Part shown: positions 17,352 to 35,490 of the stretch, in pieces
Layout: each line of letters starts with the position of its first letter
Position numbering within the stretch: position 1 is the stretch's first letter
IMG/VR virus record: IMGVR_UViG_3300036790_000516
Span: 1-54,787 of that record
Origin: a virus
Lineage: Duplodnaviria; Caudoviricetes
Direction: 5' to 3' (one strand)
Length of the DNA: 54,787 nt
Position numbers and translations under genes: made by a program
The notes under the pieces: generated by a model
What the model was told of the DNA's origin: nothing
Database searches by the model: none
The model's input: only the letters and a program-made list of their open reading frames with translations

Positions 17352-17777
17352 ATGCCCTGGACCTACCAAATCGTCAACGGAGGGATGCGCTGGCCCGCCG
17401 GGAATCTCCTCGCGCAAGGGTATAGCGGCGCGCCAGGGGCAGTGAACAATCCCGCGATGATCGCCGTCGCCGATTACGGGCCGATCCCGGTCGGCGCGTG
17501 GGAGATCGGCGCGCCCTATGACGACGCCGAGACCGGACCGTTTACGCTGCCGCTCACGCCGACCGCTACGACCGAGACGTTCGGGCGAACCGGATTCAAG
17601 ATCCACGGGGACGACATCGCGCTGGCGGGACTGGAGAGGGCGTCAAAAGGATGCATCGTGCTCGGGAGGTTCGCGCGGGAGGCGATCTGGGCGAACGAGG
17701 ACCGGCGGCTGAACGTCGTAGCGGCGTCGGCGCTGGAGACGACGATGCCCGCGCTACCGGTCGAGGAGATAACTTAG
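17352..17777 (+). CDS. Tlde1/DUF2778 (L,D-transpeptidase fold) protein, candidate endolysin
   Basis: GYSG, GPIP.G.W, GR.GF.IHGD and ASKGCI motifs (His...S.GC). Confidence 0.8.
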   Translation: MPWTYQIVNGGMRWPAGNLLAQGYSGAPGAVNNPAMIAVADYGPIPVGAWEIGAPYDDAETGPFTLPLTPTATTETFGRTGFKIHGDDIALAGLERASKGCIVLGRFAREAIWANEDRRLNVVAASALETTMPALPVEEIT

Positions 17778-17903
17778 CGCCCACGACACCACGAACGCGG
17801 CGCCGACACAGAGCGCCAGGTCGACCGTTACGACGACCGCCCAGAACGCCGCCTGCCGCCAGCCGTTCCACGGGAGATCGTCGTTGTCGGACATCGCAGT
17901 CAT
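17754..17903 (-). CDS. Small membrane protein (49 aa)
   Basis: ATGA coupling to the ATPase stop; one hydrophobic segment. Confidence 0.5.
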   Translation of the reverse strand: MTAMSDNDDLPWNGWRQAAFWAVVVTVDLALCVGAAFVVSWALSYLLDR

Positions 17904-18916: not shown

Positions 18917-18936
18917 CGTGTACAACTCGATGGCAT
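18913..18936 (-). other. 7-codon leader minigene MPSSCTR coupled to the ATPase start
   Basis: GAAGGAG-N7-ATG; its TGA overlaps the ATG at 18916 (ATGA). Confidence 0.45.
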
Positions 18937-19045
18937 AAGAGCGCTCCTTCGACGATAACGTCTCGGGTTCGAAGGAGTTGGAGAGGGCGACGCCGATCAA
19001 ACGCCGCCCAACTCGGTCGAAAGAGACGCTATCGAGCAGGGGAAC

Positions 19046-19189
19046 GAGATAATCAGGACGGCGGGCCGGTGTCAAGCGAATACCCGATGGCGGCGGTGTG
19101 AATTGCGGTGGAGATGTGGAAAACGATAACATGGAAGAGCGGATTCGCTAGAGATTTCCCTTGACATACGGTGGGGGCGGTGGCAGGAT
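19046..19189. promoter_or_regulatory. Divergent sigma70-like promoters
   Basis: TTGACA on the minus strand at 19070-19075; TTGACA-17-CAGGAT on the plus strand at 19161-19189. Confidence 0.5.
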
Positions 19190-19208
19190 GCGCGTCGAGG
19201 GAACGAAA

Positions 19209-20771
19209 ATGAAACGCATCGCCACCGACCGCTCGCGCATCGAGACCTATCAGCACTGCCGCCGTCAGCGGTGGTATGAATATCACCAGGACGGCGTCGG
19301 CATCGTGCCCGTCAAGAAGGCGCTGGCGCTGGCGGTCGGCGGGGCCGTGCATAAGGGACTGGAGACGCTGCTGCGCGGGTCGGCGGCAGTTAATTGGGCG
19401 GCACTAGAGGAAAACGCCGTCGCCGCTGCCCTCGCCGACTTCGCCTCGTTCAAAGGCGGCAATCTCGACATCGGCGGCGAGGTCATCGCCCGGCCGCCGT
19501 CCGATGGGAGCGGCGATGTCGACGAAGCACAGGTCGCCGCCGCCTCCGTCGTTCCCGCGCCCTACGACGACTACCTCTACCGCGAGCAATCGGCGCTGGT
19601 CGAGGCGTTGGTGCGGGCATACGCGCGGCGGCGGCTGCGCCCGCTGCTCGAGGAGTTCGAGGTGCTGGAGGTCGAGCGGGAGGGGGAGTGGAAGCTCGCC
19701 GATCTCGTTACGACGCATCGCCTCAGCGGCCGCGACGTAGAGATTGACGCGTGGGGCGAGGTTGTCTTCCTGTCCCGCCCCGACGCTCTCCTGCGTTCCC
19801 GCGCCGACAACTCCCTGGTCCTGCTGTCATTCAAGACGACCGGCCAGTGGGACGACCGCAAGCGCCGGGACGCCGAACACGATATGCAGGGGCTGAGCGA
19901 GGGGATTGAGATTGAGCGGCGGCTGGGAGAGTGGTACGAATACGTCACCCAGAATCCGCAGCATTGGCAGAGGAAGTGGGACCAGATCATCCCGCCCGCG
20001 ACGTTTTCGTATCTCAATGGATGTACTGCCCCGCCCCGCATTCTCGCCATCCGTTACGAATACCTCCTCAAAGGCGAACGCTGGAAGGACAAGGACCTCG
20101 CCGCGCGCTACTCGATCGACTGGGCGCGTTCCCAGCGGTCCCACCTGATCCGCCCGCACGTTTGCGTCTCGACCCCCTCCCGCGGCGCCAACGCCGGGGC
20201 GTTCCAAATCGGCGACCTCTGCTGGTCGTCGGAGTTCCACATGGAGGATGGCCGGGCGTCGAAACTGGCTTGGCAGAACTGGGACGGACGCCTGGTCACC
20301 GACCTCGACATGACCGTGCGCGAATGGATCGACAAGCTCGATACGGCGGTCGAGACCCTGTCGCCGGCCGACTCGACGCTGGGCACCGAACCGTCCCCGC
20401 TGGGATGGTCCTCGGACGCGCAGGCGGTCGGCTATACGCCCAAGCATCCGCTGGATGCGGTGTTCCTGCCGCCGATGACGGTCTACCGAAACGACGACGA
20501 CCTCCGCGACCTGATCGAGCAGATGGAGGCGCAGGAGACCACCGTCGCTGAACACGTTGCCGCCGTCGAGACCTCCACGAGCGAGGACGAGCGACGGTCG
20601 CTGCTCAATCGCCATTTCCCGCAGACCCGCCGGGCTTGCGAGTATCCCTCGACGTGCGCGTACGTTCGGGTGTGCTATGGCGGGGAGGACATTCGCCGGG
20701 AGCCGCTGGGGTCGGGCCTGTTCAGGCTGCGGGAGGCGAATCATCCCCGCGAAAAGGAGTTCCGCGAATGA
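19209..20771 (+). CDS. Cas4/AddB-like PD-(D/E)xK exonuclease
   Basis: SRIETYQHCRR, GGAVHKGLE, RPDAL...SFKT, C-terminal C-x5-C-x5-C (Fe-S-type Cys cluster). Confidence 0.75.
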   Translation: MKRIATDRSRIETYQHCRRQRWYEYHQDGVGIVPVKKALALAVGGAVHKGLETLLRGSAAVNWAALEENAVAAALADFASFKGGNLDIGGEVIARPPSDGSGDVDEAQVAAASVVPAPYDDYLYREQSALVEALVRAYARRRLRPLLEEFEVLEVEREGEWKLADLVTTHRLSGRDVEIDAWGEVVFLSRPDALLRSRADNSLVLLSFKTTGQWDDRKRRDAEHDMQGLSEGIEIERRLGEWYEYVTQNPQHWQRKWDQIIPPATFSYLNGCTAPPRILAIRYEYLLKGERWKDKDLAARYSIDWARSQRSHLIRPHVCVSTPSRGANAGAFQIGDLCWSSEFHMEDGRASKLAWQNWDGRLVTDLDMTVREWIDKLDTAVETLSPADSTLGTEPSPLGWSSDAQAVGYTPKHPLDAVFLPPMTVYRNDDDLRDLIEQMEAQETTVAEHVAAVETSTSEDERRSLLNRHFPQTRRACEYPSTCAYVRVCYGGEDIRREPLGSGLFRLREANHPREKEFRE

Positions 20772-21303: not shown

Positions 21304-21530
21304 CCAGGCTTCGAGGCTTCAACGTAAAAGACAACGTGATCACCATTCGCATGACCCGGCGGGTCGCCGACCGCGTCCGCCGCGTGGCCACCAAGAACGA
21401 ACTCACGATGGCGGAGTGGCTCCGGCTGGCGGCGGTCGAGAAGCTCAATCGGGATGATCGGGGCGGCGCGGGCGGCGCGGTCGGGACGGGCGGGGCGGCG
21501 CTGTCGCAGGAGGCCTCTCATGGCGCGTAG
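21300..21530 (+). CDS. Ribbon-helix-helix DNA-binding protein
   Basis: ITIRMT...ADRVRRVA...LTMAEWLRLA pattern. Confidence 0.7.
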   Translation: MTRLRGFNVKDNVITIRMTRRVADRVRRVATKNELTMAEWLRLAAVEKLNRDDRGGAGGAVGTGGAALSQEASHGA

Positions 21531-22554
21531 CGGCGTGATCTACGGCGACACAAACACGTATAAGACGACCGCGGGCGCACATCTGGCTCGCTACATATTC
21601 GACCTCACTGGAAAGGCGACGGTTCTGCTCTCCGCCGATGGCGGCGGCTGGTCGCCCTGCCAGAAGGAAGTCGACGCCGGGATGATCCGCCCGTTTCGCG
21701 TAGACACCGCCACGATCCCGTTGCCGATGCTGCGTAAGGTCTCGCAGGGCTACTGGCCGGTCAATCCTACCGAGAAAGACGTGAGCAAAATCGACTTTCG
21801 CCCAATTAACTGGGACGAGGTGGGCGGGGCTATCGTCGAGGGCTTCACGTCGATCGGGACGATGCTGATGCGCCATGCCGCCGACCGCAACCTCAAGACC
21901 GGCGAGGAGGGCACAACGCCATTCAGCCAGCCAATCATGGTCAACGGCGAGATCAAGATGGAGACGTTTGCGGGATCGTCGCGTGGGCATTACAACTTCG
22001 TCCAGAATCAGGAATACGGTCTGACGATGAACTTTATCTCCTGGCCCGTCGAGTACGTGCTGTTCACGGGCCACGAGAAGAAGACTGAGGACGGCGACCG
22101 CAACACCGTCTACGGAATCGCCGCTCCCGGCAAGGCCATCACCGCGCTGATCCCCACTTGGGTCGGCGACTGCATCCACGCGCAGGATTACCAAGTCAAG
22201 CGGGTGATCAAGGCGCCAAAGATAGACGGCAAGCCGGGCGAGATGGTCGAGGAGGATTCGGTCGATACATTCTGTCGCTACTACTTCAAGAAGCATCCTG
22301 ATCCGTCGACCGGGATCATGTACCCGGCCAAGCCCCGCGTCGCGCATTCCGCCGTCGCCGCGCTCGACCGTGAGTTCCCCGGCGGTTTTTTCGTGCCTAC
22401 AACCGAGCACGGTTTTGACCTCTATCTCAAGGCGCTTGATCGGCTAGCGGCGAGCGAGGGCGAGGACGACGACACGCTTAAGCGGTGGCGAGCGAAGATG
22501 GACGCCAAGCTCGGCCGCACCGCCGCAACGACGTCAGCGGCGTCCGCGAAATAG
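21520..22554 (+). CDS. AAA_24/Sak4-like ATPase (recombination)
   Basis: AGGAGG SD; IYGDTNTYKT Walker A, IVEGFTSI Walker B, FTGHE; located between nuclease and SSB-like gene. Confidence 0.7.
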   Translation: MARSGVIYGDTNTYKTTAGAHLARYIFDLTGKATVLLSADGGGWSPCQKEVDAGMIRPFRVDTATIPLPMLRKVSQGYWPVNPTEKDVSKIDFRPINWDEVGGAIVEGFTSIGTMLMRHAADRNLKTGEEGTTPFSQPIMVNGEIKMETFAGSSRGHYNFVQNQEYGLTMNFISWPVEYVLFTGHEKKTEDGDRNTVYGIAAPGKAITALIPTWVGDCIHAQDYQVKRVIKAPKIDGKPGEMVEEDSVDTFCRYYFKKHPDPSTGIMYPAKPRVAHSAVAALDREFPGGFFVPTTEHGFDLYLKALDRLAASEGEDDDTLKRWRAKMDAKLGRTAATTSAASAK

Positions 22555-22601
22555 TTTCCAGCGCAGTCAATCCAACTAAACGAGAGGAAGGACCAATCAC
22601 C

Positions 22602-23330
22602 ATGGCAACTCCAGCATTCGGCGATCCGCAGTACCAGGACCCAGCAGCGCACGAGGCCGACGCCACTCCGTCCGCGCCAGTCGACATCAACGATCCGCAG
22701 CTCACCTCCGAGGTCATGACCGAGGACGTGACCCAGGATGCTTACGCCATCCCGCCGCCGCCGCCCGACGGCAGGTGGCGCGCAAAGCTCAAGCTCGCCG
22801 AGATGAAAGGCGCGCCCGAGGGCAAGCATTACAAAGCGGTGAAATACGAGAAGATGAACGACGGGAAGTCGTTCTTCGTCGCAAACGTCGAGGCGAGTCT
22901 CATCGACGTTCACGGGAAGCAGGACGGAATCAAGGTCACGAACTATCACGTGAAGTCAGCCGTGGACAAGCGAAAGAACGTCAGCGAGATGTCCACGATC
23001 ACCAAGGCCGCAGGAGGGACGCCGGTCGAGCGTGGGACTCACGCGGATAAAATCGTCGCGCTTGAGAAGGCGCTCGCAGGCGAGCCCGAGGTCATCGTCG
23101 ACACCTTCTGGGAGGCCGCGTGTCAGACGTGCCAAGAGGCGGCCAAGAAGAAGGGCGAGCGGGTGCCGCGGGCGTTCCTGATGGGCATGAACCGCTTCCC
23201 GCAATCAAAGCCGGGACAGTTCGACCCCATGGTCACCTGCCCGGTGTGCAAGTCGATGGTGCGGGCGCAACTCCGCATCGGCCAGTTCTTGAGCGTGAAA
23301 GAGGCGAAGGCGACTCGGGGAATTGCATAG
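22602..23330 (+). CDS. DUF669-like single-stranded DNA-binding protein with zinc ribbon
   Basis: PPPDGRWRAKL motif, two CxxC pairs, follows the Sak4-like gene. Confidence 0.55.
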   Translation: MATPAFGDPQYQDPAAHEADATPSAPVDINDPQLTSEVMTEDVTQDAYAIPPPPPDGRWRAKLKLAEMKGAPEGKHYKAVKYEKMNDGKSFFVANVEASLIDVHGKQDGIKVTNYHVKSAVDKRKNVSEMSTITKAAGGTPVERGTHADKIVALEKALAGEPEVIVDTFWEAACQTCQEAAKKKGERVPRAFLMGMNRFPQSKPGQFDPMVTCPVCKSMVRAQLRIGQFLSVKEAKATRGIA

Positions 23331-23812: not shown

Positions 23813-24391
23813 ATGAAGCCGTGCTCTCGATGCAAACGGTCGCTGCCGCTAAAGCAGTTCGTCGCGGCAGGGAACACGAGGTCAGGTCGAGGAGCCTTGT
23901 GTACTCAATGTAATCGCGACAGAAACAACAGGCGGAACAGGGCACTACGGGTTCGCGTTTTAAATCACTACTCTGGCGGACTCGCTCAGTGTTCCTGCTG
24001 CGGCGTGGGGATTCTCGAATTTCTCTCGTTGGATCACATTAACGGTGGGGGGAGACGGCATCGCAGGACGATTAAAATTCGCTGGTGGGAATGGCTTATA
24101 AAGAACGGACTTCCCTTGGGGTTTCGCGTTCTTTGCCACAACTGCAACCAGTCGATTGGTCTATACGGCTATTGTCCCCACCAAACGGGCGAGCATGCGC
24201 TGTTGGATGCTTTTGAGTCGTATGATCCCCACGCGCCAAGCAAAAGTCTGAAGCTAACATCGGAACAGGTTCAAGAGATAAGGAAGGCCATCGCCAATGG
24301 AGTACCCCAAATCGCCCTCGCCACCAAATACCGAGTCAGTAGAGCAACAATCTGTCTCATCAACGGAAGAAGGCGATGGGGAGACGCTTGA
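23813..24391 (+). CDS. HNH homing endonuclease with C-terminal HTH
   Basis: CSCCG, LSLDHINGGG, VLCHNCN, CPH; KLTSEQVQEIR...VSRATI; lower GC than flanks. Confidence 0.85.
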   Translation: MKPCSRCKRSLPLKQFVAAGNTRSGRGALCTQCNRDRNNRRNRALRVRVLNHYSGGLAQCSCCGVGILEFLSLDHINGGGRRHRRTIKIRWWEWLIKNGLPLGFRVLCHNCNQSIGLYGYCPHQTGEHALLDAFESYDPHAPSKSLKLTSEQVQEIRKAIANGVPQIALATKYRVSRATICLINGRRRWGDA

Positions 24392-25667
24392 TCACGGCGT
24401 TCCAGTGGTATTTGAAACTGGAAAGGCGGGCACGGGGAAATCCTTTCGTCTGATGCGGGAGTCGCAAGCCAAAGACTCCATCCTCCAGTTATGCAGCACG
24501 ACAGGCATCAGTGCGGTCAATCTTGGCAGCGTCACCCTCAATAGCGTTCTGAAATATTTCGACACCGCGTCCCTGCGCGACTCTTTCCTCTCGGGCCAGC
24601 TCGACCGCACGCTTCACGACCTGGCCCTGCACCGCCGCTGGCTGGCGATCGACGAGGGCTCGATGCTCGAAGCCGACCAGCTCGACCTGATCCATCGCGG
24701 GGTCGAGAAGGCCAACCAGTTCCGCGATCTCGCCGGGCGGCCCTTGGGCATCCGTCTGGTCGGCGACTTCGCGCAGCTCCCGCCGGTGCAAGGGCGATGG
24801 GCGTTCGAGGCCGACTGCTGGCGGCGGTTCGCGGCGGCTACGACCCGCCTGGCGCGCGTATGGCGGCAGGACGGCGGACCCTTCCTCGACGCCTTAAACG
24901 CCGCTCGCGAGGGTCGCGGGGGCGACGCGGCCGACATACTAAGCGCCGCCGGGGCCGAATGGCGCACCGCCCGCGACGAGAACTTCGACGGCACGACGAT
25001 CCTCCCCAAGAACGCGCTGGTCAGCCGGCACAACGAACTCGTCCTGGCGAAGCATCGCGGCGAGGTCATTACCGTCACCTCCCGCCGCTGGGGCAGGCAA
25101 CGCAGCGAGTGGGGCGAGAACCAGCGGACGCGCGAGTGGGGAATACCGCCCAAGGCCGAGTTCAAGATCGGCGCCTACGTGATGATCCTCGCGAACTCCC
25201 CCGGCTTCGAGTGGGCCAACGGAGATTGCGGCCATGTTGAAAGCTACGACGCATCGCCGCTGACCGAGTCGTTCGCGATTCGCCTGGTGCGCACCGGCGC
25301 GCTGGTCGAGATCGCCAAAATCCGCCGCAGGGTCGAGGTCCGCGCCAAGCCCGACGACTGGCCCGACGCCAACCGGTTCGCGCAATGGGGACGGCCATAC
25401 CGCGACCCCGAGCGGCGATGCTACGTGCTCGGCGAGGTGGAGTTTTTCCCGCTGCGGCTGGCGTGGGCGAGCACCGTTCACAAATCGCAAGGACTGTCCC
25501 TCGACGCGGTGCAGGTCGACTACCGCGACCGGTTCTTCGCGTCGCCCGCGATGCTCTACGTCGCGCTGTCCCGGTGCCGCACGCTTGCCGGGCTGCGGCT
25601 GGTCGGCATGAAGGACGTGTTCGTGCGGGCGTGCAACATGGACGCGCGGGTGAGGGACTACGTATGA
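24297..25667 (+). CDS. Pif1/RecD-like SF1B helicase
   Basis: TGKAGTGKS, IDEGSM, GDFAQLPPV, FPLRLAWASTVHKSQG, YVALSR. Start uncertain (24297 or GTG 24405). Confidence 0.9.
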   Translation: MEYPKSPSPPNTESVEQQSVSSTEEGDGETLDHGVPVVFETGKAGTGKSFRLMRESQAKDSILQLCSTTGISAVNLGSVTLNSVLKYFDTASLRDSFLSGQLDRTLHDLALHRRWLAIDEGSMLEADQLDLIHRGVEKANQFRDLAGRPLGIRLVGDFAQLPPVQGRWAFEADCWRRFAAATTRLARVWRQDGGPFLDALNAAREGRGGDAADILSAAGAEWRTARDENFDGTTILPKNALVSRHNELVLAKHRGEVITVTSRRWGRQRSEWGENQRTREWGIPPKAEFKIGAYVMILANSPGFEWANGDCGHVESYDASPLTESFAIRLVRTGALVEIAKIRRRVEVRAKPDDWPDANRFAQWGRPYRDPERRCYVLGEVEFFPLRLAWASTVHKSQGLSLDAVQVDYRDRFFASPAMLYVALSRCRTLAGLRLVGMKDVFVRACNMDARVRDYV

Positions 25668-26884
25668 GAAAGAAGCCGCAATCGTGTTCCGGTTGCGCGA
25701 TGGAGTTCCACGGCCACGATTTTAGCCAAATCGAGGGCACCGGCTCAAACGGCATCATGGTCATCGGCGAGGCCAGCGGCAAGGAGGAGGCCCGCGAGTG
25801 TCTGCCATTCCGCCCGTACGCGCCCTCCGGCGGGGTCCTCGAACGCGCGTTCCGGCGCATGTCCCTCAAGCGCAACCAGTTTTCCATCACCAACTGCGGA
25901 CGCTGCCGACCGCGCAAAGACTGGTTGTCCGATTCGCCGTGGGAGTATGCCGCGCTCCGCCATTGCCGCCCGAATCTGATCGCCGCGATCGCCGAGTTCC
26001 GCCCCCGCGTCATCTGGACGCTGGGCAACCTCGCCATGCGCGAAGTCACCGGCTATAGCGGCGTCGCACGGGAGATGCAGTCGATCTCGCATCTGACCGG
26101 ATACTGCCTGCCGACCGCGCCGGACCTGTCGCCGGTGCCGATCCCGGTCGTGCCCGCGTTTCACACGGCGTACCTGCGCCGCGGGAAAATGTCGCACTTC
26201 GGGCAGCTCACGCGGACGCTCAAGCGGGCGACCAACATCGCGGCGGGGACCGATCGCGATTGGCTGTGGGGCGTTGTGCCGGAGGACCCGGCGACGCATG
26301 GAGGATTACGATATGAAATCCATCCGTCGCTCGACGCTGCACAAGCGTTTGCTGCGCGAGTTAGAGACGGTATCAAGAGTATCGTCTCTTATGACATTGA
26401 GACTCAGGAATCAGCGTCCCTTGACGAGGATGCGCGCGAGGGATTCACAGACACTCGCATTCAGCTTGTCCAGTTCAGTATCGAAAGTGGAGAGGGCATT
26501 GCGATACCTTTCGATGGAGCCTATCGTGGGATTATCGGAGAAATACTGCGAGGACCCAACGTCAAGGTCGGCCACAACGTCTGGCTGTTCGACAACAAAG
26601 TCCTCCGCGCGGCGGGCGAGCGGGAAGGGCTCGACCTGATCCCGCGCGGCACCATCCACGACACCCTCGCCATGTTCCACCACTGGCAGCCGGACCTTCC
26701 CGCCCATCTCCAGTTCGCCGCCAGCTTCGTGTCGTTCCCGTTCCCCTGGAAGCATCTGGCGGCGACCGATCTGGCGTTCTACGGGTGCTGCGACGCGGAC
26801 GCGACGCTGCGGCTGTATACGTTTCTGGAGGCGGCGCTGCGGCGGGACGGGATTTGGGATGACGGCGAGTCGGCCGTCGCGTGA
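25664..26884 (+). CDS. Uracil-DNA glycosylase (family 4-like) fused to a DnaQ-like 3'-5' exonuclease; N-terminal half of the split family A polymerase
   Basis: UDG motifs CSGC, IGEASG..E...PF, ITN..RCRP, TLGNLA, FHTA. Exo I YDIET, Exo II GHN..FD, HDT, Exo III YGCCDAD. Confidence 0.88.
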   Translation: MRKKPQSCSGCAMEFHGHDFSQIEGTGSNGIMVIGEASGKEEARECLPFRPYAPSGGVLERAFRRMSLKRNQFSITNCGRCRPRKDWLSDSPWEYAALRHCRPNLIAAIAEFRPRVIWTLGNLAMREVTGYSGVAREMQSISHLTGYCLPTAPDLSPVPIPVVPAFHTAYLRRGKMSHFGQLTRTLKRATNIAAGTDRDWLWGVVPEDPATHGGLRYEIHPSLDAAQAFAARVRDGIKSIVSYDIETQESASLDEDAREGFTDTRIQLVQFSIESGEGIAIPFDGAYRGIIGEILRGPNVKVGHNVWLFDNKVLRAAGEREGLDLIPRGTIHDTLAMFHHWQPDLPAHLQFAASFVSFPFPWKHLAATDLAFYGCCDADATLRLYTFLEAALRRDGIWDDGESAVA

Positions 26885-26897
26885 TGAAGGAGGGCAA

Positions 26898-27395
26898 GTG
26901 AGCGACGAACAAGATGGCGGCAAGATGTCCGAAGAGATGGCGGAAGAAGCATTACAACGCGAACGGGCCAAATACCTTGAGGAGTTTGGGAAAGTCGGTC
27001 CACACAAGATGCCTGACCAGGGAGGTAAAACTATGGCAATGACTGCTGCCAGTGACTGCTTTTATTGTGACGCTTTATGGGAAATAGATGCGGAACGAAA
27101 GCTGCATCGGCATCCCGATGGAACTGCTTTCGTATATCCCTGCTCGGACGGAAAGTTGCCAGATTATTCACGTATCGTTAGCCAAGATACAGAAACACTT
27201 CTCTCCATTGCTAGGAAGAACGTAGACGATTGGGCCAAGGTTGCCGGTGAGAGGGAACAACTACTGGCCGCCGAGCGCACGAAAACGAAGCGGCTGCGGG
27301 AACTAATGTTGAATGTACTAGATATGGATGGTGATTGGGAAGATAGAGAGCATGCGATGCGGGCCGTGCTTGCCGAGACGGGAGACCAAGCGTGA
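26898..27395 (+). CDS. Hypothetical protein (low-GC insert between polymerase halves)
   Basis: AAGGAGG SD before GTG; second in-frame GGAGG-ATG internally. Confidence 0.6.
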   Translation: MSDEQDGGKMSEEMAEEALQRERAKYLEEFGKVGPHKMPDQGGKTMAMTAASDCFYCDALWEIDAERKLHRHPDGTAFVYPCSDGKLPDYSRIVSQDTETLLSIARKNVDDWAKVAGEREQLLAAERTKTKRLRELMLNVLDMDGDWEDREHAMRAVLAETGDQA

Positions 27396-27577
27396 TCGAT
27401 AGACTGTACACGACGCGCTTCTATCCATGCGGCTGTAGCGCAAACGGTCCTGGGGACGTGCCGCCATATTGTCCGATTCACCGTTCCCTGATCGACATGG
27501 AGAATCTGCTTTCCGACCCAAATACCAGCAAGTATTTTATTAGCGAGCCTCCAGAGTTGGCCGAGACGGGAGAGTGA
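27392..27577 (+). CDS. Small Cys/His protein
   Basis: GTGA coupling; CGC...CPIH. Confidence 0.6.
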   Translation: MIDRLYTTRFYPCGCSANGPGDVPPYCPIHRSLIDMENLLSDPNTSKYFISEPPELAETGE

Positions 27578-27579
27578 CC

Positions 27580-27750
27580 ATGGCGACCAAGAGGACGAAG
27601 GGGAAGCGGTGCCGAAAATGTCGTCATGCGAAGACATCGCACAGAAGCTATGGCTCAAAGTTGTGCAAGGCTAAGGGCGACATGTGCGGATGCCCCGGAT
27701 GGTCACCACAACGCGTTTCCGGCGCTCGTAACCTGAAAGGGGACGGCTGA
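27580..27750 (+). CDS. 56-aa zinc-finger-like protein (not in ORF track)
   Basis: MATKRTKGKRCRKCRHAKTSH...C......CGC; GGGAG SD. Confidence 0.65.
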   Translation: MATKRTKGKRCRKCRHAKTSHRSYGSKLCKAKGDMCGCPGWSPQRVSGARNLKGDG

Positions 27751-27751
27751 G

Positions 27752-28561
27752 ATGACGAAGCTGACGGACGAAGAGCTGGCAGCACAACGTAGACTGTGCG
27801 GGCATCCGGCGCATGTCGGAAGTGTGTGCGCCCGTATGCTCGACAATATCGACGCCCTCCAGCGCGAGAACGCCGAGTTGCAGGCCAAGCTCGCGCCGGG
27901 TCCCTGCCCGCAGAAGCATCCGGCGATGTTCTGGCATGTCGTCACAGAGGACGTTCATTTCCCTCAAGACCCTCCAGGAACGATCCGCTTCAAGAGTAGC
28001 GGTCCCATCTGCGACCTCTGCCTCGCCCTGTCCCGCGTTGCGGATGACGCGACAGTGGCAGAGCACAGTAACCACGTTCAATTCGCGGCGGATATGTATT
28101 CCATTCTCGTTGACCCTTGCGCGGACGGCTCGATCAAAGAGGCTGAGATGTTCGAAACGCTAAAGCGTGCGGCGACGGAACAGCGAGAGACAATTTACCG
28201 TCACGCGGAGGAGTTGAAACGCGCTGCCGATACCGGGAGAGCGACGGGACTGAGTGATGCCGCAGAGCACATGTGTCTGTTTATTGACGAGGATTGGACC
28301 GTTAAATGTTCCTGCGGCTGGTCGAAAAAGTGTAACGAGCGTGAGTACACAAACCTTTTTGCTGGGCACATCCGTGCCCTCGACCCGTCCGCAGCCAAGG
28401 CCCTCGAGGAGACCCACCCCCGCGAGGACATCATCTCCGAGTCCACCGTCACAAACGGCATGGTCGAGATCGGCGGACGGCGCATCGCCGCGCCGGGCTT
28501 CCCCGAGGGCCAAAAGGTCGAGGTCGTGGCGCGGGAACGGCGGGAGCGGCAGGGGCGATGA
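27752..28561 (+). CDS. Hypothetical mosaic protein
   Basis: MTKLTDEELAA N-terminus, coiled coil, Cys pairs; ATGA-coupled to the polymerase. Confidence 0.6.
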   Translation: MTKLTDEELAAQRRLCGHPAHVGSVCARMLDNIDALQRENAELQAKLAPGPCPQKHPAMFWHVVTEDVHFPQDPPGTIRFKSSGPICDLCLALSRVADDATVAEHSNHVQFAADMYSILVDPCADGSIKEAEMFETLKRAATEQRETIYRHAEELKRAADTGRATGLSDAAEHMCLFIDEDWTVKCSCGWSKKCNEREYTNLFAGHIRALDPSAAKALEETHPREDIISESTVTNGMVEIGGRRIAAPGFPEGQKVEVVARERRERQGR

Positions 28562-30195
28562 CCACGCGCGGCTATCTCGGCCAGGTATTCGAGGTGCGCC
28601 CGGTGCTCGCCGCGATGGAGGACCGCGGGATGCCAATTGACGACGCCGCGCGCATCGCCCTGGACGCCGAGTTCACCATCGCGCAACGGGCGCTGGGCGA
28701 GGAGCTGGCCGCCGCCGCGCCGGCCGCCTGCCGCCGCGTCCACCCGAAGGACGGCTACAAGGGGATGCCGCCGGAGGTCAAGGAGTGGCAAAAGCAGGTT
28801 GGTCTGCTCATCACGCCCAACGAACATCGCTTCCAAGAGAAGGGCGACGGCGAGCAATACATCTACGAGGTCCGTACTTTCAACGTCGCCATCATCGATC
28901 CCGAGACGGGAGAACCGACCACAGTAGCCACAACGCGTTGGGCACGCGTCTACGATTTCAACCCGAACAGCAGTCAGCAGCTCCTCGCCTACATGGACGC
29001 GCGGGGGCATAAGCGCCCCAAGTCGCGCAAGAACGAGGACGACGACGGCAACGCCAGGGACACCACGGCCAAGAAGGACCTGCAGCGCCTGGCCTACGAC
29101 CACGACGATCCCTTTTATCTCCGCGTCATCGAGTACCGGGAACTCTCCAAAGCGCGGGGCACCTACATCGACGGGTTCAAGCCGGGCGCCGATGGCTGCG
29201 TCCACACGGCGTTCGGCTTCGCGGGCACCGGGCAGCTCACCTCGCGCAATCCCAACGTGCAGAACTTCCCCAAGCACGGGAGGCTGGCCAAGGCCCTGCG
29301 GCGAATGATCGCGCCGCCGCCGTCCGAGGACCGCGTCGTCATCGAACTCGACTACCGCGCTTTCCACGTGCTGATGACCGGCTTTGCGGCGGAATCGGCG
29401 AACTGGATGCGTCTGGCGCGCCTCGACATGCATTCCTTCGTCGCCTGGCATTTTATGAAGCTGCCCAGCGCCGACGGCCTGTTCGTCCTCGCCGACGATG
29501 ATCTATCCGAACGCCTCGAATGGTTCAAGTCCGACCCCAAACGCGCGTGGGTGCGGGACAAGCAGGCCAAGCCGTCGGACCTCGGCATCGGCTTCGGCAT
29601 GGGGCCTCGCCGCCTGTTCCAGGAGAACATGGAGTATTTCGACGGCGAGCGCGAGGCCCGGAAGTTCCACGACATGCTGCACGGGATATTCCCCGACGTG
29701 ATTTGCGTCTGCCGGGTCGGCGAGCGATGCGACGCGTGGCAGCACCGGGTTCGCTTCGAGGCGCACGAGAAACAGCGGCTGACGACGCCATTCGGCCACC
29801 ACCGCCGGTTCTACGAGGTGTTTCGCTGGGACGCCAAGCGCATGGGATGGGCCAAGGGGGATCAGGCGGAGGAGGCGGTCGCGTTCGTGCCGGCCAATCT
29901 CGCCCACGGCCATCTGCGCGAGGTGATGAAGGACATGAGGCGCGCGGGGCACGACGACCGCTACCGGATGGGCGACCAGATCCACGACGCGCTGGTGTTC
30001 TTCCCGCGGCGCGAGGAGGCCGATGCCTGCCTGGCGGATGTCAGCGCCGCGATGACCGCGCCCAGCCGGGTGATCAGCCATCCAACGCTCGCGCCGGGAG
30101 GCCTGTGGTGCGGGGTGGATGCCAAGATCGGGCCGAACTGGGCTGGGATGGAGAAGGTTAAGATTCGGGCGACGACGACAAAAGGAGTCCGCTAA
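28558..30195 (+). CDS. Family A DNA polymerase, thumb/palm/fingers only (C-terminal half of split enzyme)
   Basis: MEDRGMPID, FNPNSSQQ, YRELSK..GTY, TGQLTSRNPNVQN, motif A DYRAFH, motif B R...AKPSDLGIGFG, TPFGHHR, motif C QIHDAL, G.NW. Confidence 0.92.
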   Translation: MTTRGYLGQVFEVRPVLAAMEDRGMPIDDAARIALDAEFTIAQRALGEELAAAAPAACRRVHPKDGYKGMPPEVKEWQKQVGLLITPNEHRFQEKGDGEQYIYEVRTFNVAIIDPETGEPTTVATTRWARVYDFNPNSSQQLLAYMDARGHKRPKSRKNEDDDGNARDTTAKKDLQRLAYDHDDPFYLRVIEYRELSKARGTYIDGFKPGADGCVHTAFGFAGTGQLTSRNPNVQNFPKHGRLAKALRRMIAPPPSEDRVVIELDYRAFHVLMTGFAAESANWMRLARLDMHSFVAWHFMKLPSADGLFVLADDDLSERLEWFKSDPKRAWVRDKQAKPSDLGIGFGMGPRRLFQENMEYFDGEREARKFHDMLHGIFPDVICVCRVGERCDAWQHRVRFEAHEKQRLTTPFGHHRRFYEVFRWDAKRMGWAKGDQAEEAVAFVPANLAHGHLREVMKDMRRAGHDDRYRMGDQIHDALVFFPRREEADACLADVSAAMTAPSRVISHPTLAPGGLWCGVDAKIGPNWAGMEKVKIRATTTKGVR

Positions 30196-30482
30196 TGCCG
30201 CTGCGACTGCTTGCGCACGAGATCAAGGACGTACGAGACGCTGTTCTGGACTCGATTCGGGGCCGCTACGACACTTACACCTGTCCCGACTGCGACGCCA
30301 ACGTGGAAGTGGATAGCGCCTCGGCCGTGACCATCTTGGACCATTCGATCCCGCCGCTGGTCGACCGCATCCTGGCTATCGTTCACAACGCGGTGCATCG
30401 GGGGATGGCCGAGGCGCAGGCGTCGCCCCCGCCCGCAACCGCTCGATCAGCGCCAGACGATACGCCGCCGCCGCGTCCCTAG
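30195..30482 (+). CDS. Hypothetical protein
   Basis: AAGGAG SD, TAATG coupling, CPDC. Confidence 0.55.
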   Translation: MPLRLLAHEIKDVRDAVLDSIRGRYDTYTCPDCDANVEVDSASAVTILDHSIPPLVDRILAIVHNAVHRGMAEAQASPPPATARSAPDDTPPPRP

Positions 30483-31095
30483 CGTCGTCCTTGTGCGTGC
30501 GGGCGAGGTAGTGATACATCACCGGCGCGGCGGCGATGGCGACCGTTGTCAAGGGCCATCGCGCCGTCCCGATCGCGCCAACGTCCCCGACGAATCGCTC
30601 GCTGCGCACCAGCCCGGTTGCCCGCAGCCGATCCGCCCAGCGGTGGTCCTCGCCGTAGCCGCCTTCCATGGGGACCGCCAGCGCCAGCCCCCGGCGGATC
30701 GGGTTCAGATGGGAGATGTCGCGCCAGTAGAGACGGCCGTCGTCGTGCCATCCCTTCGCGGCGAGGGAGTGGATGGTCGTGCCGAAGGGGGTCCCGTCGA
30801 TGTGGCATTGGAGGCGGAATCCGATCTGGTCGACGACGCCGTCGAGGAGCGGGAGGATGCGGGCGACATAGTCCGGGGGAAGAACATCATCGTCATCGAC
30901 GAAACACAGGTAGTCCGCCCTGGACGCCTGCCGCATCTCCTCGCGATTCCCGCCGAGCGGCAACCTGTCGTCGAAGCGATGGATACGAACGTTCACGCGA
31001 GGCTCGACCTGTGGCTCCAGGATGGCGAGCAGTTGGGCAAGGAACGGCCAGCGGGATGGTTGCGTAAGGATCAGGATGTCCCAGGTGGCGTTCAT
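30376..31095 (-). CDS. Glycosyltransferase family 2-like
   Basis: DILILT, LG.NR, YLCFVDDDD, GED..W. Confidence 0.8.
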   Translation of the reverse strand: MNATWDILILTQPSRWPFLAQLLAILEPQVEPRVNVRIHRFDDRLPLGGNREEMRQASRADYLCFVDDDDVLPPDYVARILPLLDGVVDQIGFRLQCHIDGTPFGTTIHSLAAKGWHDDGRLYWRDISHLNPIRRGLALAVPMEGGYGEDHRWADRLRATGLVRSERFVGDVGAIGTARWPLTTVAIAAAPVMYHYLARTHKDDARDAAAAYRLALIERLRAGATPAPRPSPDAPRCER

Positions 31096-31178
31096 GGCTG
31101 CTCGCACCGGGACACGAGGATGATCAGCGCCACCACCGACAGCACAGCCATCACCGCGTCGAACCAATGTCCGCTCAT
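31092..31178 (-). CDS. 28-aa membrane peptide
   Basis: ATGA-coupled at both ends; MSGHWFDAVMAVLSVVALIILVSRC. Confidence 0.5.
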   Translation of the reverse strand: MSGHWFDAVMAVLSVVALIILVSRCEQP

Positions 31179-31780
31179 GGCCGCTCGCCCCCATCGACCA
31201 GCACGACGTTCTCCGCGCTTGTGTACGATATGGTATACCCAAGGCCCTCCGCCAGCGCCGTCACGCGGTCCAGGCGGTCGTCGTACTCCAGCACGATCAC
31301 CAGCGGCTTGACCCGGTCCCAAGGCCAGCGCTCGAAAATCTCGACCGACGTGCCCTCGGTGTCGATCGAGACGGCCAGAAGCTTGCCGCCGTCGAGGATC
31401 GCCGGGAACTCGTCCACCAGCTCGACGACGGTCGCCTGCGGGACGTAGAAAGGTTCGCTGAACTCCACCTGCCCGCGCCAGTTCATGTAGTTGCGCGCCT
31501 CGGAGGTCGACAGCAGGCCAGCCTCCCAGAACGGCGCGAGACGATGGGAGACGCCGACCGCCGCGTGGACCAGGCGGAGGCGTTGGTTGCGGCCGTGGCG
31601 CGCCAGGAGATTGTCGAAGGCGCGCGAGGGCTCGACCAGCACGCCGGGCCAGCCCTTTTCGACCAGCGCCAGGGTGTTCGAGGCGAAATGGCCGTCGTTG
31701 GCGCCGATGTCGAGGAACGAGCCGCTGCGCCCGCTAACGGCGTCCAGGATCCACTTTTCCTCCTGCGACTGGGAGTACAT
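31175..31780 (-). CDS. FkbM-family methyltransferase
   Basis: YSQ..EE, FLDIGANDG..SNT, GW.GVLVEP, SIDTEG. Confidence 0.88.
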   Translation of the reverse strand: MYSQSQEEKWILDAVSGRSGSFLDIGANDGHFASNTLALVEKGWPGVLVEPSRAFDNLLARHGRNQRLRLVHAAVGVSHRLAPFWEAGLLSTSEARNYMNWRGQVEFSEPFYVPQATVVELVDEFPAILDGGKLLAVSIDTEGTSVEIFERWPWDRVKPLVIVLEYDDRLDRVTALAEGLGYTISYTSAENVVLVDGGERP

Positions 31781-31956
31781 CAACGGTCCTTGGATTCCAG
31801 TCCGTCTTCAACGGCACGCAGAGACTTCCATGCGAGATCGGCTAGGCGCAAGGCCCTCCCAACAGGCCAGTTCTTGCGTGACACATAGTTGCGCTGTAGG
31901 GAGATTTGGGCCAGCCAGGTCGCAACGAAAATGCGCTTGAAGGAATCTTCAGTCAT
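31780..31956 (-). CDS. 58-aa hypothetical protein (not in ORF track)
   Basis: MTEDSFKRIFVATWLAQ...; coupled at both ends. Confidence 0.6.
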   Translation of the reverse strand: MTEDSFKRIFVATWLAQISLQRNYVSRKNWPVGRALRLADLAWKSLRAVEDGLESKDR

Positions 31957-32642
31957 TTCGAGCCCTCGATAACGCCGCGCAACTTCTCCACGTCCCCAGC
32001 CCGCTCCGCCGCCAGCGACCTATAAAGCGCCGTAGGGTCCTGCGCCGCGTGGCGGGCCAACCGCTCCCGCGTGTTCCCGTCCATGGCCGCCTTCCCGTAG
32101 ATATAATGACAATGTTCGATCAGCAGGTCCGGGAGATAGACGCGGCGCCCCAACGCTTTCGCAACGTCCTCGTTCCAGGTGTCGCCGCCGTAGTCGGATT
32201 CGAAGTAAGGCGCGGCCATGTAGCCCAGCGTCTGGACCCAGCGGCGGCTTAGGAACGGATGTGGGATCGCGGTGCCATGGACGACGCCGTCGTCACCGCC
32301 GACGAGGACGATCCTGTCGGGGACGCGGGCGAACGCCTCCTCGACCATTGCGTTCCAGCCGGGCGTTCGAAAGACAATGTCGTCGTTCGCCAGCATGAGA
32401 ATCCCGCCCAGCGCCTGGGGGACCAGCTCGTTCCAGTAGCGGGTCATCACCCGGTCGCGCGCGCCGACGACGACCTTCGCGCCGGTTTGGCCCGCCGACC
32501 TCGCGCTTACCGGATCGTCATCGTCGAACCGGGCGAGGATTTCGATGGCGGACTCGTCGCCGTCCAGCGCCGCATAGGCGGAGTCGGCCATCCGCGCGAA
32601 CTCCATCGGGCGTTTACGGGAGGGTAGCAAGATGCTGATCAT
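31953..32642 (-). CDS. Glycosyltransferase family 2-like
   Basis: ISILLPSR.RP, DDDD, ANDD..F.T.GW, GDTW, IEH.H. Confidence 0.8.
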   Translation of the reverse strand: MISILLPSRKRPMEFARMADSAYAALDGDESAIEILARFDDDDPVSARSAGQTGAKVVVGARDRVMTRYWNELVPQALGGILMLANDDIVFRTPGWNAMVEEAFARVPDRIVLVGGDDGVVHGTAIPHPFLSRRWVQTLGYMAAPYFESDYGGDTWNEDVAKALGRRVYLPDLLIEHCHYIYGKAAMDGNTRERLARHAAQDPTALYRSLAAERAGDVEKLRGVIEGSK

Positions 32643-32645
32643 CGC

Positions 32646-32675
32646 TCACGCCGCCCAGTAGACGCCCGACGCCGC
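32646..32675 (-). pseudogene. Orphaned duplicate 3' end of the upstream glycosyltransferase (AASGVYWAA*)
   Basis: Matches the C-terminus GASGPYWEA* encoded at 33340-33369, on the other side of the RNA ligase. Confidence 0.7.
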
Positions 32676-32681
32676 ACTTCC

Positions 32682-33338
32682 TTATCGCCTTCCCGCAACA
32701 AAGTCCCTCGTCTTGAGTTTTATGATGACGCGTTCACCACGCCCGTCGAATAAGGTTCCAATGGGCCGCGCCACCACGCCCTCCGCCAGTCCCATCCCAA
32801 TGTTTGAAGCAAACGGTAACCGCACCAACGCGACGATTTCAGATAACGACATGCGCCCCAGATAGGGCACAGTGTCTATTCCCAGCTTTGCGGCGACTTC
32901 GTTCACGGCATCGCGCTCCAGCCACCATTTTCCATCCACGAGAGCGTCGAACAAGATGAAGCTTTTGTCGGGACGATAGGCACCTCCTTTCCGGATACCA
33001 GCACCATACCCCTCGCCGTACAGGACAATCTGCGTAGGCTCTACCCACAATTCTCGCATCTTATTGGATGGGAACATGGCGATAAGCGTCTGAATGAACT
33101 CAGCGGGAAGCATCGCCCTTTGTGACCGGCCCCCAAACGAAACGTCGCCATTCGCAGAGAGCATCACTCGTACGTTGGTCCCATCGATCTTCTCGGTCAC
33201 ATCCCATTCAGCAATCGTCGCCAGAACGGGAGATTTGATCTTCGTTGGGTCTACAACGAATGTGGCATCATCTCGTTTAAACAACGTGTCGATCTTGGGG
33301 TATTCAGGTCCCTCGATAACAGTCTGTACCATAGCCAT
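32682..33338 (-). CDS. Rnl2-like ATP-dependent RNA ligase
   Basis: YPKI, TEKIDGTN (motif I), LYGEGYG, FILFD, EGVVARP, KLK; lower GC. Confidence 0.85.
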   Translation of the reverse strand: MAMVQTVIEGPEYPKIDTLFKRDDATFVVDPTKIKSPVLATIAEWDVTEKIDGTNVRVMLSANGDVSFGGRSQRAMLPAEFIQTLIAMFPSNKMRELWVEPTQIVLYGEGYGAGIRKGGAYRPDKSFILFDALVDGKWWLERDAVNEVAAKLGIDTVPYLGRMSLSEIVALVRLPFASNIGMGLAEGVVARPIGTLFDGRGERVIIKLKTRDFVAGRR

Positions 33339-33339
33339 T

Positions 33340-33999
33340 TCACGCCTCCCAGTACGGCCCGCTTGCCCCATACCTGAATCCAAGATGATTCATGCGCACG
33401 CCCGGCATCACGCCGACCCTGAATCCGGCCGCCTCGATCTCCCGGCAGATGGTCTCGTCGGTGTGCCGGGGCTCGCAGGCGGCGAATGTCTTGAGGATGC
33501 CGCGGCGGACGAAGGCGACGCCGCCGACGCTATGGCGGTCGATGATCTCAGATGGCCAGGCGGCAGCGGTTGACCTGTCGGATGACCAAGTGTCCCACTC
33601 AGCGATAAGATTGGCGTTCTCGATCACGCTCACCGCCGTCAGCAGGCCGTACGCGGGATTGGCCCGCAGGATGCGCACGCCGTCGGCGACGAACGTCCTG
33701 CCGAGGATCAAACAGTCGTCGTCGGCGACGATGTAAACGTCCCCCGCCGCGTGCTCCTCGGCGAAACGCTTGGCTTCCATGTGAAACTGGCTCCCGTTCG
33801 AGTCCGTCGAGTGAGCCCGCTGCAAATAGACCTTGGCGTCCTTTTGCATCCACCAACGCCCATGAACCAAGACGGCCATACTATGCCGTAAATCGCGACG
33901 TTCTCCCGACGGAATCCAAGACCGCACGAACACGTCGATCCTCTCCGCCTCCGCCACCTCCGCCGCCCCGCCCGCCTCACCCGGCATCGCCAGATCCAT
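33340..33999 (-). CDS. Glycosyltransferase family 2-like
   Basis: YIVADDDCL, GGVAFVRR, D...C......GF.V, NHLG. Confidence 0.7.
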   Translation of the reverse strand: MDLAMPGEAGGAAEVAEAERIDVFVRSWIPSGERRDLRHSMAVLVHGRWWMQKDAKVYLQRAHSTDSNGSQFHMEAKRFAEEHAAGDVYIVADDDCLILGRTFVADGVRILRANPAYGLLTAVSVIENANLIAEWDTWSSDRSTAAAWPSEIIDRHSVGGVAFVRRGILKTFAACEPRHTDETICREIEAAGFRVGVMPGVRMNHLGFRYGASGPYWEA

Positions 34000-35139: not shown

Positions 35140-35490
35140 TCACGGCGTCACCGCCGTCCTCGTCATCACCATCGGCTTCAGGAATCCCGTCAAGGCGCGG
35201 GCGTCGTAGCGGATCGTCACCGACTTCATCGCGGCGTCCGTCGTGACCTCCATCGCCGACGGGTCCAGCAGCAGCCCAGCCGCCACCGTCTTCGCCCATG
35301 CGGACGGATTGCAGGCGGGCACGGCTTGCGCCTGGCAGACCGCTGCTTGCGTGGCCACGTAGGACAGCGTGACCGCCTGCTGCTCGAACCACAACAGGTC
35401 GGCGCCGGCCAGCAGCAGGAACAGCAGGACGGGGAGGGTGAGGGCGAACTCGAGCAGGACCGCGCCGCGCTGGCGGCGTTGGCGTCTCAT
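35140..35490 (-). CDS. TadE/TadG-like pseudopilin
   Basis: Basic leader, G/AVLLEFALTLPVLLFLLLAG (Gly-1, Glu+5, EFA..LP consensus). Confidence 0.85.
   Translation of the reverse strand: MRRQRRQRGAVLLEFALTLPVLLFLLLAGADLLWFEQQAVTLSYVATQAAVCQAQAVPACNPSAWAKTVAAGLLLDPSAMEVTTDAAMKSVTIRYDARALTGFLKPMVMTRTAVTP

Follow-up and report, generated by a model that had tools for sequence, protein, structure and literature searches.

The window analysed here is the entire 54,787-nucleotide sequence of the virus record IMGVR_UViG_3300036790_000516 (Duplodnaviria; Caudoviricetes), a complete IMG/VR record with direct terminal repeats that stems from an uncultured phage. On its plus strand, an open reading frame (ORF) at positions 28558-30195 encodes the polymerase domain of a family A DNA polymerase (PolA), in which textbook residues of the nucleotide-binding site are replaced as a set. 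With a probability of roughly 0.68, this ORF specifies the polymerase subunit of a two-piece replicative polymerase, which is active and proofreading and uses an alternative, charge-neutral pocket with no change of substrate class; the other piece would be a uracil-DNA glycosylase (UDG) joined to a 3'-5' exonuclease, encoded at 25664-26884. The replacements are shared by a clade that is known so far from metagenomes alone and that is a large, undescribed branch of UDG-exonuclease-PolA polymerases within the Pol I family.

The ORF matches the Pfam family DNA_pol_A (PF00476) with 86 bits, above the cut-off of 34.3 (E 3.3e-24), and the family phrog_17 with an E-value of 2.1e-37. The AlphaFold2 model of the subunit has a mean predicted local distance difference test value (pLDDT) of 92.2 and a predicted template modelling score (pTM) of 0.86, and its best Foldseek matches are the Bst, Taq and Klenow polymerases (E ~5e-17, probability 1.00, TM ~0.6). 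The features of the subunit are as follows, with canonical residues numbered after E. coli PolA (from NC_000913.3) and with motif 6 given in the register that is favoured below:

28558-30195, plus strand: family A DNA polymerase domain subunit (thumb, palm and fingers), 545 amino acids, Pfam DNA_pol_A and phrog_17
28720-28953, plus strand: beta-rich thumb insertion, residues ~55-132, with AlphaFold2 strands at 61-67, 100-113 and 120-132
29227-29244, plus strand: TGR motif, here TGQLTS, in which Gln226 (29233-29235, CAG) replaces R668, from translation and alignments
29350-29367, plus strand: motif A, DYRAFH, in which the catalytic Asp265 (29350) is kept and His270 (29365-29367, CAC) replaces E710
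29554-29598, plus strand: motif B (O-helix), RDKQAKPSDLGIGFG, with R333-D334, K338 = K758, L342 = F762 and F346 = Y766
29869-29919, plus strand: motif 6 (helix Q), with E438 for R841, A442 for N845, A446 for Q849 and R454 = K857
29983-29991, plus strand: motif C, HDA, with H476 = H881, D477 = D882 and A478 replacing E883

The thumb insertion is skipped by the profile alignment to Klenow and is absent from the helical thumb of Klenow-type enzymes; it is rich in beta-hairpins and recalls the thumb insertion of phiKMV-like PolAs (PMC10201439; this paper, PMC10520511 and PMC13697223 are cited here for parts of their text).

The original prediction, which was made from the letters of the sequence, had placed R668Q at 29233 and E710H at 29365. 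Both codons were confirmed. Gln226 falls on R668 and His270 on E710 in each of four independent alignments: two were made to Klenow chains, one with phmmer and one with a 40-sequence profile (E 9.3e-32), the third is a MAFFT alignment of 120 homologues with E. coli PolA, and the fourth a BLASTP comparison with gp39 of phage N4. The predicted changes F762L and Y766F within the string KPSDLGIGFG (Leu at 29581, Phe at 29593) were likewise borne out by translation and alignment. The statement that both catalytic Asp residues and the motif B Arg and Lys remain holds for the Asp residues and for K338; Arg333, however, lies five residues before Lys338, whereas R754 lies four before, and the canonical place of R754 is taken by D334. 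The change from HDE to HDA is real, but it is not specific to the clade, as N4 has HDA, SP-10 and the podovirus ctLwi270 have HDS, and HDE occurs in 3 clade loci. Among the hallmarks of family A, the catalytic Asp residues of motifs A and C and the motif B Lys (D265, D477 and K338) are thus invariant or nearly so, whereas R668 and the E710 gate are exchanged for Gln226 and His270, and the R/N/Q set of motif 6 is missing in either of its two registers (E438/A442/A446 or E439/F443/N447).

A word-indexed search gave 232 relatives, of which the best 120 were used. A further 358 clusters (50% identity) with E≤1e-30 came from an HMMER search that covered all of 1.84 billion cluster representatives, and the best 150 of these 358 entered the comparison. 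In total, 267 proteins were placed on the query numbering with a hidden Markov model (HMM) of the clade, and the counts given here refer to the homologues that cover each column. The homologues are ~33-71% identical to the query. Gln226 is present in 262/263 of them (120/120 and 142/143); the sole Arg belongs to a 238-amino-acid fragment whose final residues depart from the family consensus. His270 is present in 263/265 (118/120 and 145/145), and the other two, which carry Phe, have the full set of catalytic residues. D265, H292 and D477 are invariant where covered, H476 is conserved, and R333 is found in 260/261, Asp or Asn at 334 in 252/259, K338 in 261/263 and L342 in 240/263 homologues. 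Column 346, equivalent to Y766, holds Phe in 168, Asn in 81, Leu in 13 and Tyr in 1 sequence, and column 478, equivalent to E883, is mostly Ser or Ala, with HDE kept in 3 clade loci and HDD in 2. Furthermore, 59 related IMG/VR loci were fetched, of which all but two (L004 and L053) yielded a polymerase ORF, and Gln226 and His270 occur together in 57/57 of these.

In a 40-sequence alignment with a mean column identity of 33%, only 19 columns are invariant, and they include Q226, H270, R333, K338, L342, D265 and D477; the presence of Q226 and H270 among so few invariant columns at this divergence indicates that their conservation is beyond chance. By contrast, Arg is kept at the TGR position in 5/5 references (E. 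coli PolA, N4 gp39, SP-10, Arthrobacter phage Amavida gp56 and ctLwi270), and the Glu gate in all four references that are aligned there (E. coli, N4 gp39, SP-10 and Amavida gp56). The multiple alignment that had been proposed as a check therefore returned a clade-wide signature: the Gln/His pair and the accompanying replacements are a fixed set across the clade and not the product of decay, which agrees with the predicted coordination of the substitutions. Judged from these columns, the replacement residues appear to be under strong purifying selection. No cultured relative above ~25% identity was found in 50,697 phage records, and the clade scores far under every NCBIfam cut-off. Cellular or prophage copies were limited to 3 matches in 185,579 species-representative genomes, all of them on contigs of 1-11 kb from metagenome-assembled genomes (MAGs; L066-L068), which suggests that integration of the clade into cellular genomes is not common; their binning to Terracidiphilus/Terriglobia and Salinisphaerales is a weak hint of the hosts.

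For motif 6, the original prediction had read N845A and Q849A from the string AFVPAN (29881-29898). The profile and the MAFFT alignment support this, placing N845 on A442, Q849 on A446 and R841 on E438, whereas single-sequence phmmer shifts the motif by one residue, giving E439, F443 for N845 and N447 for Q849; F443 and N447 are conserved neighbours. Several observations favour the A442/A446 register. Gln is kept at column 446 in a subclade (17/261 homologues, 9/57 loci), and in this register the conserved basic residue at 454 (Arg or Lys) falls on K857. In addition, the AlphaFold2 model has one continuous helix over residues 437-463, which leaves no space for the one-residue gap of the phmmer register, and columns 446 and 346 co-vary.

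This co-variation takes the form of three dominant combinations, F346 with P445 and A/S446, N346 with L445 and A/S446, and L346 with V445 and Q446. On a FastTree tree of 218 clade rows and three outgroups, calculated with the trait columns excluded (a quick tree with supports of limited weight), at least 15 changes fall in column 346 and at least 18 in column 445. Among phylogenetically independent pairs, F346 and P445 changed in the same direction in 11 cases and in opposite directions in none, with 3 pairs showing no difference (sign test ~0.001); L346 and Q446 did so in 8 cases and none (sign test ~0.008). N346 and L/H445 gave 3 same, 0 opposite and 2 without difference, which are too few pairs for a test.

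The second piece of the polymerase is encoded upstream, and the features of this region are:

25664-26884, plus strand: UDG (family 4) and 3'-5' exonuclease subunit, 406 amino acids, Pfam UDG
25766-25780, plus strand: UDG motif A, GEASG
26159-26173, plus strand: UDG motif B His, in FHTAY
26390-26404, plus strand: Exo I (DIE)
26573-26593, plus strand: Exo II
26780-26794, plus strand: Exo III
26885-28557, plus strand: insert of 1,673 bases at the exonuclease/polymerase junction, which splits the polymerase gene and holds two orphan ORFs
26859/26898-27395, plus strand: orphan ORF 1, with a GTG at 26898 behind AGGAGG
27752-28561, plus strand: orphan ORF 2, whose stop codon overlaps the polymerase ATG as ATGA

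The UDG partner that had been noted from the sequence is real: the ORF at 25385-26884 matches Pfam UDG with 59.3 bits (cut-off 24.3), the matches to NCBIfam family-4 UDGs fall under their cut-offs, and the motifs are intact. UDG motif A, the motif B His and Exo I to III are also conserved in 117 fused homologues. The order of domains is that of UDG-PolA enzymes, with the UDG N-terminal to exonuclease and PolA, but here the UDG-exonuclease part lies on its own polypeptide. The two polypeptides would be expected to assemble into the architecture of the fused homologues. UDG, exonuclease and polymerase form one ORF (~830-1400 amino acids, the longer ones with insertions) in 47/57 related loci, the polymerase part is an ORF of its own in 7/57, and 3/57 are cut by the locus edge. 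Nevertheless, the split seems to be common to the nearest relatives of the window, since 10/11 best protein matches (P0002-P0012, among the best 120 of 232) are polymerase-only proteins of 505-569 amino acids, several of them on contigs of 48-64 kb. Many clade polymerases have 1,000-1,700 amino acids and match the query in 2-4 separate stretches (L020, L024, L038, L049, L052, L053 and L058; P0121-P0267), which suggests frequent large insertions in clade polymerase genes, possibly inteins.

The insert at 26885-28557 is compositionally foreign, with a GC content of 57.3% against 64.2% for the genome. Its two ORFs match none of the Pfam, PHROG or NCBIfam families and gave no tblastn match in the phage collection or in the 59 related loci, and a search of the ESM Atlas with the second one was fruitless. 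No convincing repeats were found to flank the insert, and no signature of an intein, an intron or a homing endonuclease was seen. On both sides of it, the halves of the polymerase are uninterrupted ORFs that have sequences resembling ribosome-binding sites and whose start codons overlap the stop codons of the preceding genes; the ATG of the UDG-exonuclease gene overlaps the stop codon of the upstream Dda-like helicase gene.

Interruption by foreign DNA, together with the absence of several residues that are essential in Klenow, could be taken as a sign of inactivation, in which case the gene would be a decaying or non-catalytic remnant. This view deserves hardly any credence, since the new residues do not themselves vary among homologues of 33-71% identity, the catalytic Asp and Lys residues are kept, both halves of the gene are intact ORFs preceded by ribosome-binding-site-like sequences, and the split recurs in related genomes. 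Moreover, no other polymerase was found in the genomes concerned: one PolA locus and no PolB are present in 34/34 clade genomes including the window, in a search that did not include DnaE-type polymerases, and 30 of the 34 are at least 90% complete (CheckV). Taken with the intact UDG and proofreading centres, the conserved replacements and the status as sole polymerase, the conservation of the catalytic core (both Asp residues, K338, H292 and H476) indicates that the protein is very probably an active enzyme, as had been predicted, and a replicative polymerase.

The preferred reading is that this active polymerase would perform ordinary two-metal, templated polymerisation of deoxynucleoside triphosphates (dNTPs) with proofreading. 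The metal ligands would be D265 and D477, while K338, R333 and H292 would hold the triphosphate; His270 and Leu342 would form a still-bulky sugar gate, while Gln226 and probably Asn447 would supply minor-groove hydrogen bonds. In Bst, residues Q797, R615, E658 and D830, which are equivalent to Q849, R668, E710 and D882, form a close electrostatic cluster, and the same source treats R668, E710, R754 and Y766 as residues that do not vary within family A (PMC10520511). In canonical Pol I, R668, E710 and Q849, beside D882, form a polar cluster about the incoming nucleotide's sugar and the terminal base pair's minor groove; in the clade, this cluster is replaced as a set by Gln226, His270 (rarely Phe) and Ala/Ser446. 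The charged Arg-Glu pair would thereby be exchanged for a neutral Gln-His pair; as the two changes take one positive and one negative charge from the cluster, they would follow the pattern expected of a coupled replacement. Further changes fixed in the clade are Leu for F762, Phe, Asn or Leu for Y766, Glu for R841, Ala or Ser for N845, Ser or Ala for E883, and the displaced O-helix Arg. The rewiring would then represent another solution to the same job, not a different substrate class.

A number of points weigh against this interpretation. By the standards of Klenow mutagenesis, the loss of R668, E710, Q849, N845 and R841 should cripple the enzyme, and the evidence that the job is the same consists of conservation and sole-polymerase status. 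The roles proposed for Gln226, His270, Asn447 and R333 follow from their positions in the sequence rather than from geometry. With its Arg displaced and an Asp conserved at the place of R754, the clade may in fact handle the triphosphate differently. For motif 6, phmmer gives another register than MAFFT and the profile do, and the Gln/His signature was sampled in the best 150 of the 358 strong representatives. Finally, the genome may carry an unrecognised modification gene, with two glycosyltransferases and an FkbM-type methyltransferase encoded just downstream of the polymerase.

A changed sugar pocket could also relax or shift selectivity towards ribonucleoside triphosphates (rNTPs), dideoxynucleoside triphosphates (ddNTPs) or 2'-modified substrates, and the enzyme might even start chains and thereby replace a primase. 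E710, F762 and Y766, three residues around the sugar, are all altered, and the window gave no match to a primase in a search that comprised Toprim_2, Prim-Pol and N4 gp43 (the N4 primase) and was not exhaustive. The missing primase of the original prediction is thus weakly confirmed; an AAA_25 protein (17900-19132) and several conserved proteins are without an assigned role. The gate, however, is always His or Phe and never a small residue, and aromatic gates exclude ribonucleotides in other polymerase families. A bulky gate is expected to keep ribonucleotides out and to retain sugar discrimination. Furthermore, Leu commonly takes the place of F762 (position B3) in several natural PolA clusters (PMC10201439). 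A polymerase with altered sugar selectivity, whether or not it starts chains, is very improbable.

Alternatively, the pocket may have been rewired to deal with templates or substrates of a non-standard kind: either abasic sites made by the UDG are crossed, or the phage DNA is modified in an unrecognised way. In the abasic-site version, the fused UDG, which seems to be active, would excise uracil ahead of the polymerase, and weaker checking of the minor groove would permit crossing, as in SP15-like UDG-PolAs, which remove deoxyuridine (dU) in front of the fork and then use deoxyadenosine (dA) to bypass the abasic site (PMC13697223). UDG motifs are intact throughout the clade, R668, N845 and Q849 are fidelity and mismatch-sensing residues (PMC10520511), and phages of the SPO1/SP15 type have T-modified DNA (PMC13697223). 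In addition, a gene group adjoins the polymerase downstream on the minus strand (30376-33383) and comprises a family-2 glycosyltransferase, an FkbM-type methyltransferase, a second glycosyltransferase-like gene (PHROG only) and an RNA-ligase-family gene; a connection of this group to DNA modification or repair could not be demonstrated.

The searches for modification and nucleotide-pool genes argue against such an adaptation. Thymidylate-synthase/hydroxymethylase families were found in 0/33 clade genomes, and TGT/DpdA and adenylosuccinate-synthetase (PurZ-like) families in 0/34. MazG likewise exceeded its cut-off in 0/34, with one weak match of 16 bits; the MazG-like gene that the original prediction had invoked was not found in the window at E≤1, nor in Pfam scans of 60 further ORFs at E≤0.01. 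Those Pfam scans revealed no nucleotide-modification or dNTP-pool enzyme, and the conserved neighbours of clade polymerases include no nucleotide-metabolism family. Known base modifications lie mostly in the major groove and would not require changes of this kind. Moreover, fusion to a UDG alone needs no rewiring, since N4, SP-10 and ctLwi270 keep the Arg and N4 and SP-10 also keep the Glu, and the intact proofreading exonuclease fits poorly with a dedicated lesion-bypass enzyme. Adaptation to a non-standard template or substrate is therefore rather unlikely, though it is the best placed of the alternatives. The purpose that had been predicted, namely the use of modified nucleotides or ribonucleotides or the bypass of lesions, finds no support in the genomic evidence and is in part contradicted, given a bulky gate, an intact exonuclease and no modification genes found in these searches.

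A broader possibility is that, in the Gln/His clade, the sugar of the nucleotide and the minor groove are checked by a truly different chemistry. The selectivity for sugar or base may be relaxed or re-targeted, the enzyme may be coupled to abasic sites that the UDG makes, or it may prefer another metal, as could be argued from the presence of a His by the metal site and of two carboxylates fewer. We consider this distinctly doubtful; if true, abundant soil and freshwater phages would carry an unrecognised kind of DNA, or a natural scaffold with the properties of engineered Klenow and Taq mutants.

The polymerase lies at the end of a plus-strand replication module, in the order nuclease, Sak4-like protein, conserved protein, Dda-like helicase, UDG-exonuclease, two orphan ORFs and polymerase domain. 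The further genes that were assigned here are:

17900-19132: AAA_25 protein, 410 amino acids, from the Pfam scan
19161-20771, plus strand: PD-(D/E)XK nuclease of the replication module
21454-22554, plus strand: Sak4-like protein of the replication module
22485-23330, plus strand: conserved protein with no assigned function, in the replication module between the Sak4-like gene and the helicase
24297-25667, plus strand: Dda-like helicase of the replication module, its stop codon overlapped by the UDG-exonuclease ATG

In related loci, the conserved neighbours of the polymerase gene comprise families of replication and recombination proteins as well as proteins without assigned function. Among the latter, the protein of 22485-23330 (~200-290 amino acids) has counterparts in 33 related loci in addition to the window (34 cluster members); it carries a C-terminal CxxC...CxxC pair and matches no family, and its gene takes the position of the gene for the single-stranded DNA-binding protein (SSB) in the N4 module. 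PHROG and Pfam searches also identified structural genes in the window, namely terminase, portal and an SU10-like major capsid protein. In the C-terminal half of the large terminase ORF (42024-44843, 939 amino acids), Hint/intein-splicing and LAGLIDADG families match weakly, the Intein_splicing match of 34.3 bits being slightly below the cut-off of 35.8; to judge from these similarities, the ORF probably contains an intein. Besides, a Tlde1-domain protein is encoded at 17352-17777 (Pfam 39.6 bits; phrog_24118 E 1.6e-30) and a TadE-like protein at 35140-35490 (26.9 bits).

The accepted account of how ribonucleotides are rejected and base-pair geometry is sensed is built on R668, E710, R754 and Y766 together with Q849. 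Here, a natural clade of 358 clusters (50% identity) replaces these textbook residues as a set and serves as the sole apparent replicase of complete phages of 55-70 kb. This replicase retains proofreading, and the textbook network thus appears to be one solution rather than a requirement. The clade offers a natural experiment for fidelity and sugar selection, in which Gln/His can be compared with Arg/Glu, along with the three co-varying combinations of motif B and motif 6, and its polymerases may be of biotechnological use. In addition, the recurrent split between exonuclease and polymerase, with foreign DNA exactly at the domain boundary, represents a second PolA lineage with these activities on separate polypeptides.

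Compared with the canonical Pol I enzymes Klenow, Bst and Taq, the window enzyme has the same fold and keeps both catalytic Asp residues, K758, H734 (as H292), H881, R821/822, K857 (as Arg or Lys) and the equivalents of N675 and P674. The clade differs from Pol I by R668Q, R682H/L, E710H, F762L, Y766F/N/L, R841E, N845A/S, Q849A/S and E883S/A, by an Asp at R754 with an Arg one residue earlier, by the extra beta-rich thumb insertion, and by an N-terminal UDG instead of the 5' nuclease. PolAs have been sorted into 19 clusters in which the crucial catalytic residues are strictly conserved, and the only variation of the TGR motif that is reported in the running text, as distinct from the logo figure, is a Thr-to-Ala change in one of the 19 (PMC10201439). 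Full-text searches of the literature, whose coverage leaves aside the motif logos and supplements of PMC10201439 and PMC13697223, gave no description of a PolA with Gln in the TGR motif or with a His gate. The enzyme is also distinct from DpoZ, as a fused homologue reaches 31.6 bits against the cut-off of 500 of NCBIfam phage_DpoZ_1 and the PurZ family is found in 0/34 genomes.

Known UDG-PolAs are either N4-like, with a degenerate UDG and Phe at B3, or unclustered enzymes of the SPO1, SP-10 and SP-15 types (PMC10201439). The order of UDG, 3'-5' exonuclease and PolA is common to the clade and to the SPO1-like (SPO1, SP-10) and SP15-like (YerA41, phiLo) enzymes. Both of these groups have a catalytically intact family-4 UDG (PMC10201439, PMC13697223), and the clade keeps motif A and the motif B His; SP-10 has HDS at motif C, as do most clade members. 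SP-10, however, keeps R668, E710 and a canonical motif A, which the clade does not. Identity is no more than ~22%, and the UDG-exonuclease half barely matches SP-10. The SP15-like group includes the YerA41 polymerase of 1306 amino acids, with Insert 1, Insert 2 and a C-terminal domain of ~80 residues (PMC13697223), whereas the fused enzymes of the clade, compared by size alone, have ~900-950. No pathway of the 5-hydroxymethyluracil (hmU) type was found in the window genome or in the clade genomes searched. An SP15-like enzyme was not among the PDB sequence matches obtained with phmmer and the profile, in a searched set in which the presence of such entries is uncertain.

N4 gp39 (cluster #17) shares with the window enzyme the order UDG, exonuclease and polymerase and the motif C sequence HDA, and the N4-like replication module has the same kinds of genes by the polymerase (Dda-like helicase, nuclease and Sak4-like protein). 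However, N4 gp39 keeps the TGR Arg, the gate Glu and the R/N/Q set of motif 6, all of which the window enzyme lacks. The N4-like cluster has lost the catalytic residues of its UDG and carries Phe at B3 (PMC10201439), whereas the clade keeps the UDG motifs and has Leu at B3 in 240/263 homologues. The two polymerases are 23% identical, the UDG-exonuclease half has no match to N4, and N4 replication proteins other than helicase and polymerase have no match in the window. A close kinship to N4 was rejected on these grounds.

Separate genes for exonuclease and polymerase are also found in the T7-like polymerases of S-SBP1-like cyanophages (PMC10201439). These belong to another PolA cluster (T7-like, with Tyr at B3), whereas the N-terminal piece in the window adds a UDG; the split in the window, unlike that of the S-SBP1-like enzymes, is marked by a compositionally foreign insert of 1.67 kb with two orphan genes. 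The nearest deposited phage record is the metagenomic podovirus ctLwi270 (MW202554.1), which is the best reference match to both the UDG-exonuclease half (E 5.6e-21) and the polymerase half (E 9.9e-16), likewise encodes them as two adjacent ORFs, and has HDS at motif C like most of the clade. Its polymerase ORF is shorter (408 amino acids) and keeps the TGR Arg; at the gate position, phmmer places a Glu five residues after the catalytic Asp, in a column that the clade HMM left unaligned. Taken together, the known UDG-PolAs share the order of domains with the clade, ctLwi270 and the S-SBP1-like phages have separate genes for exonuclease and polymerase, and the Gln/His pair distinguishes the clade from the references in which the two positions were aligned.

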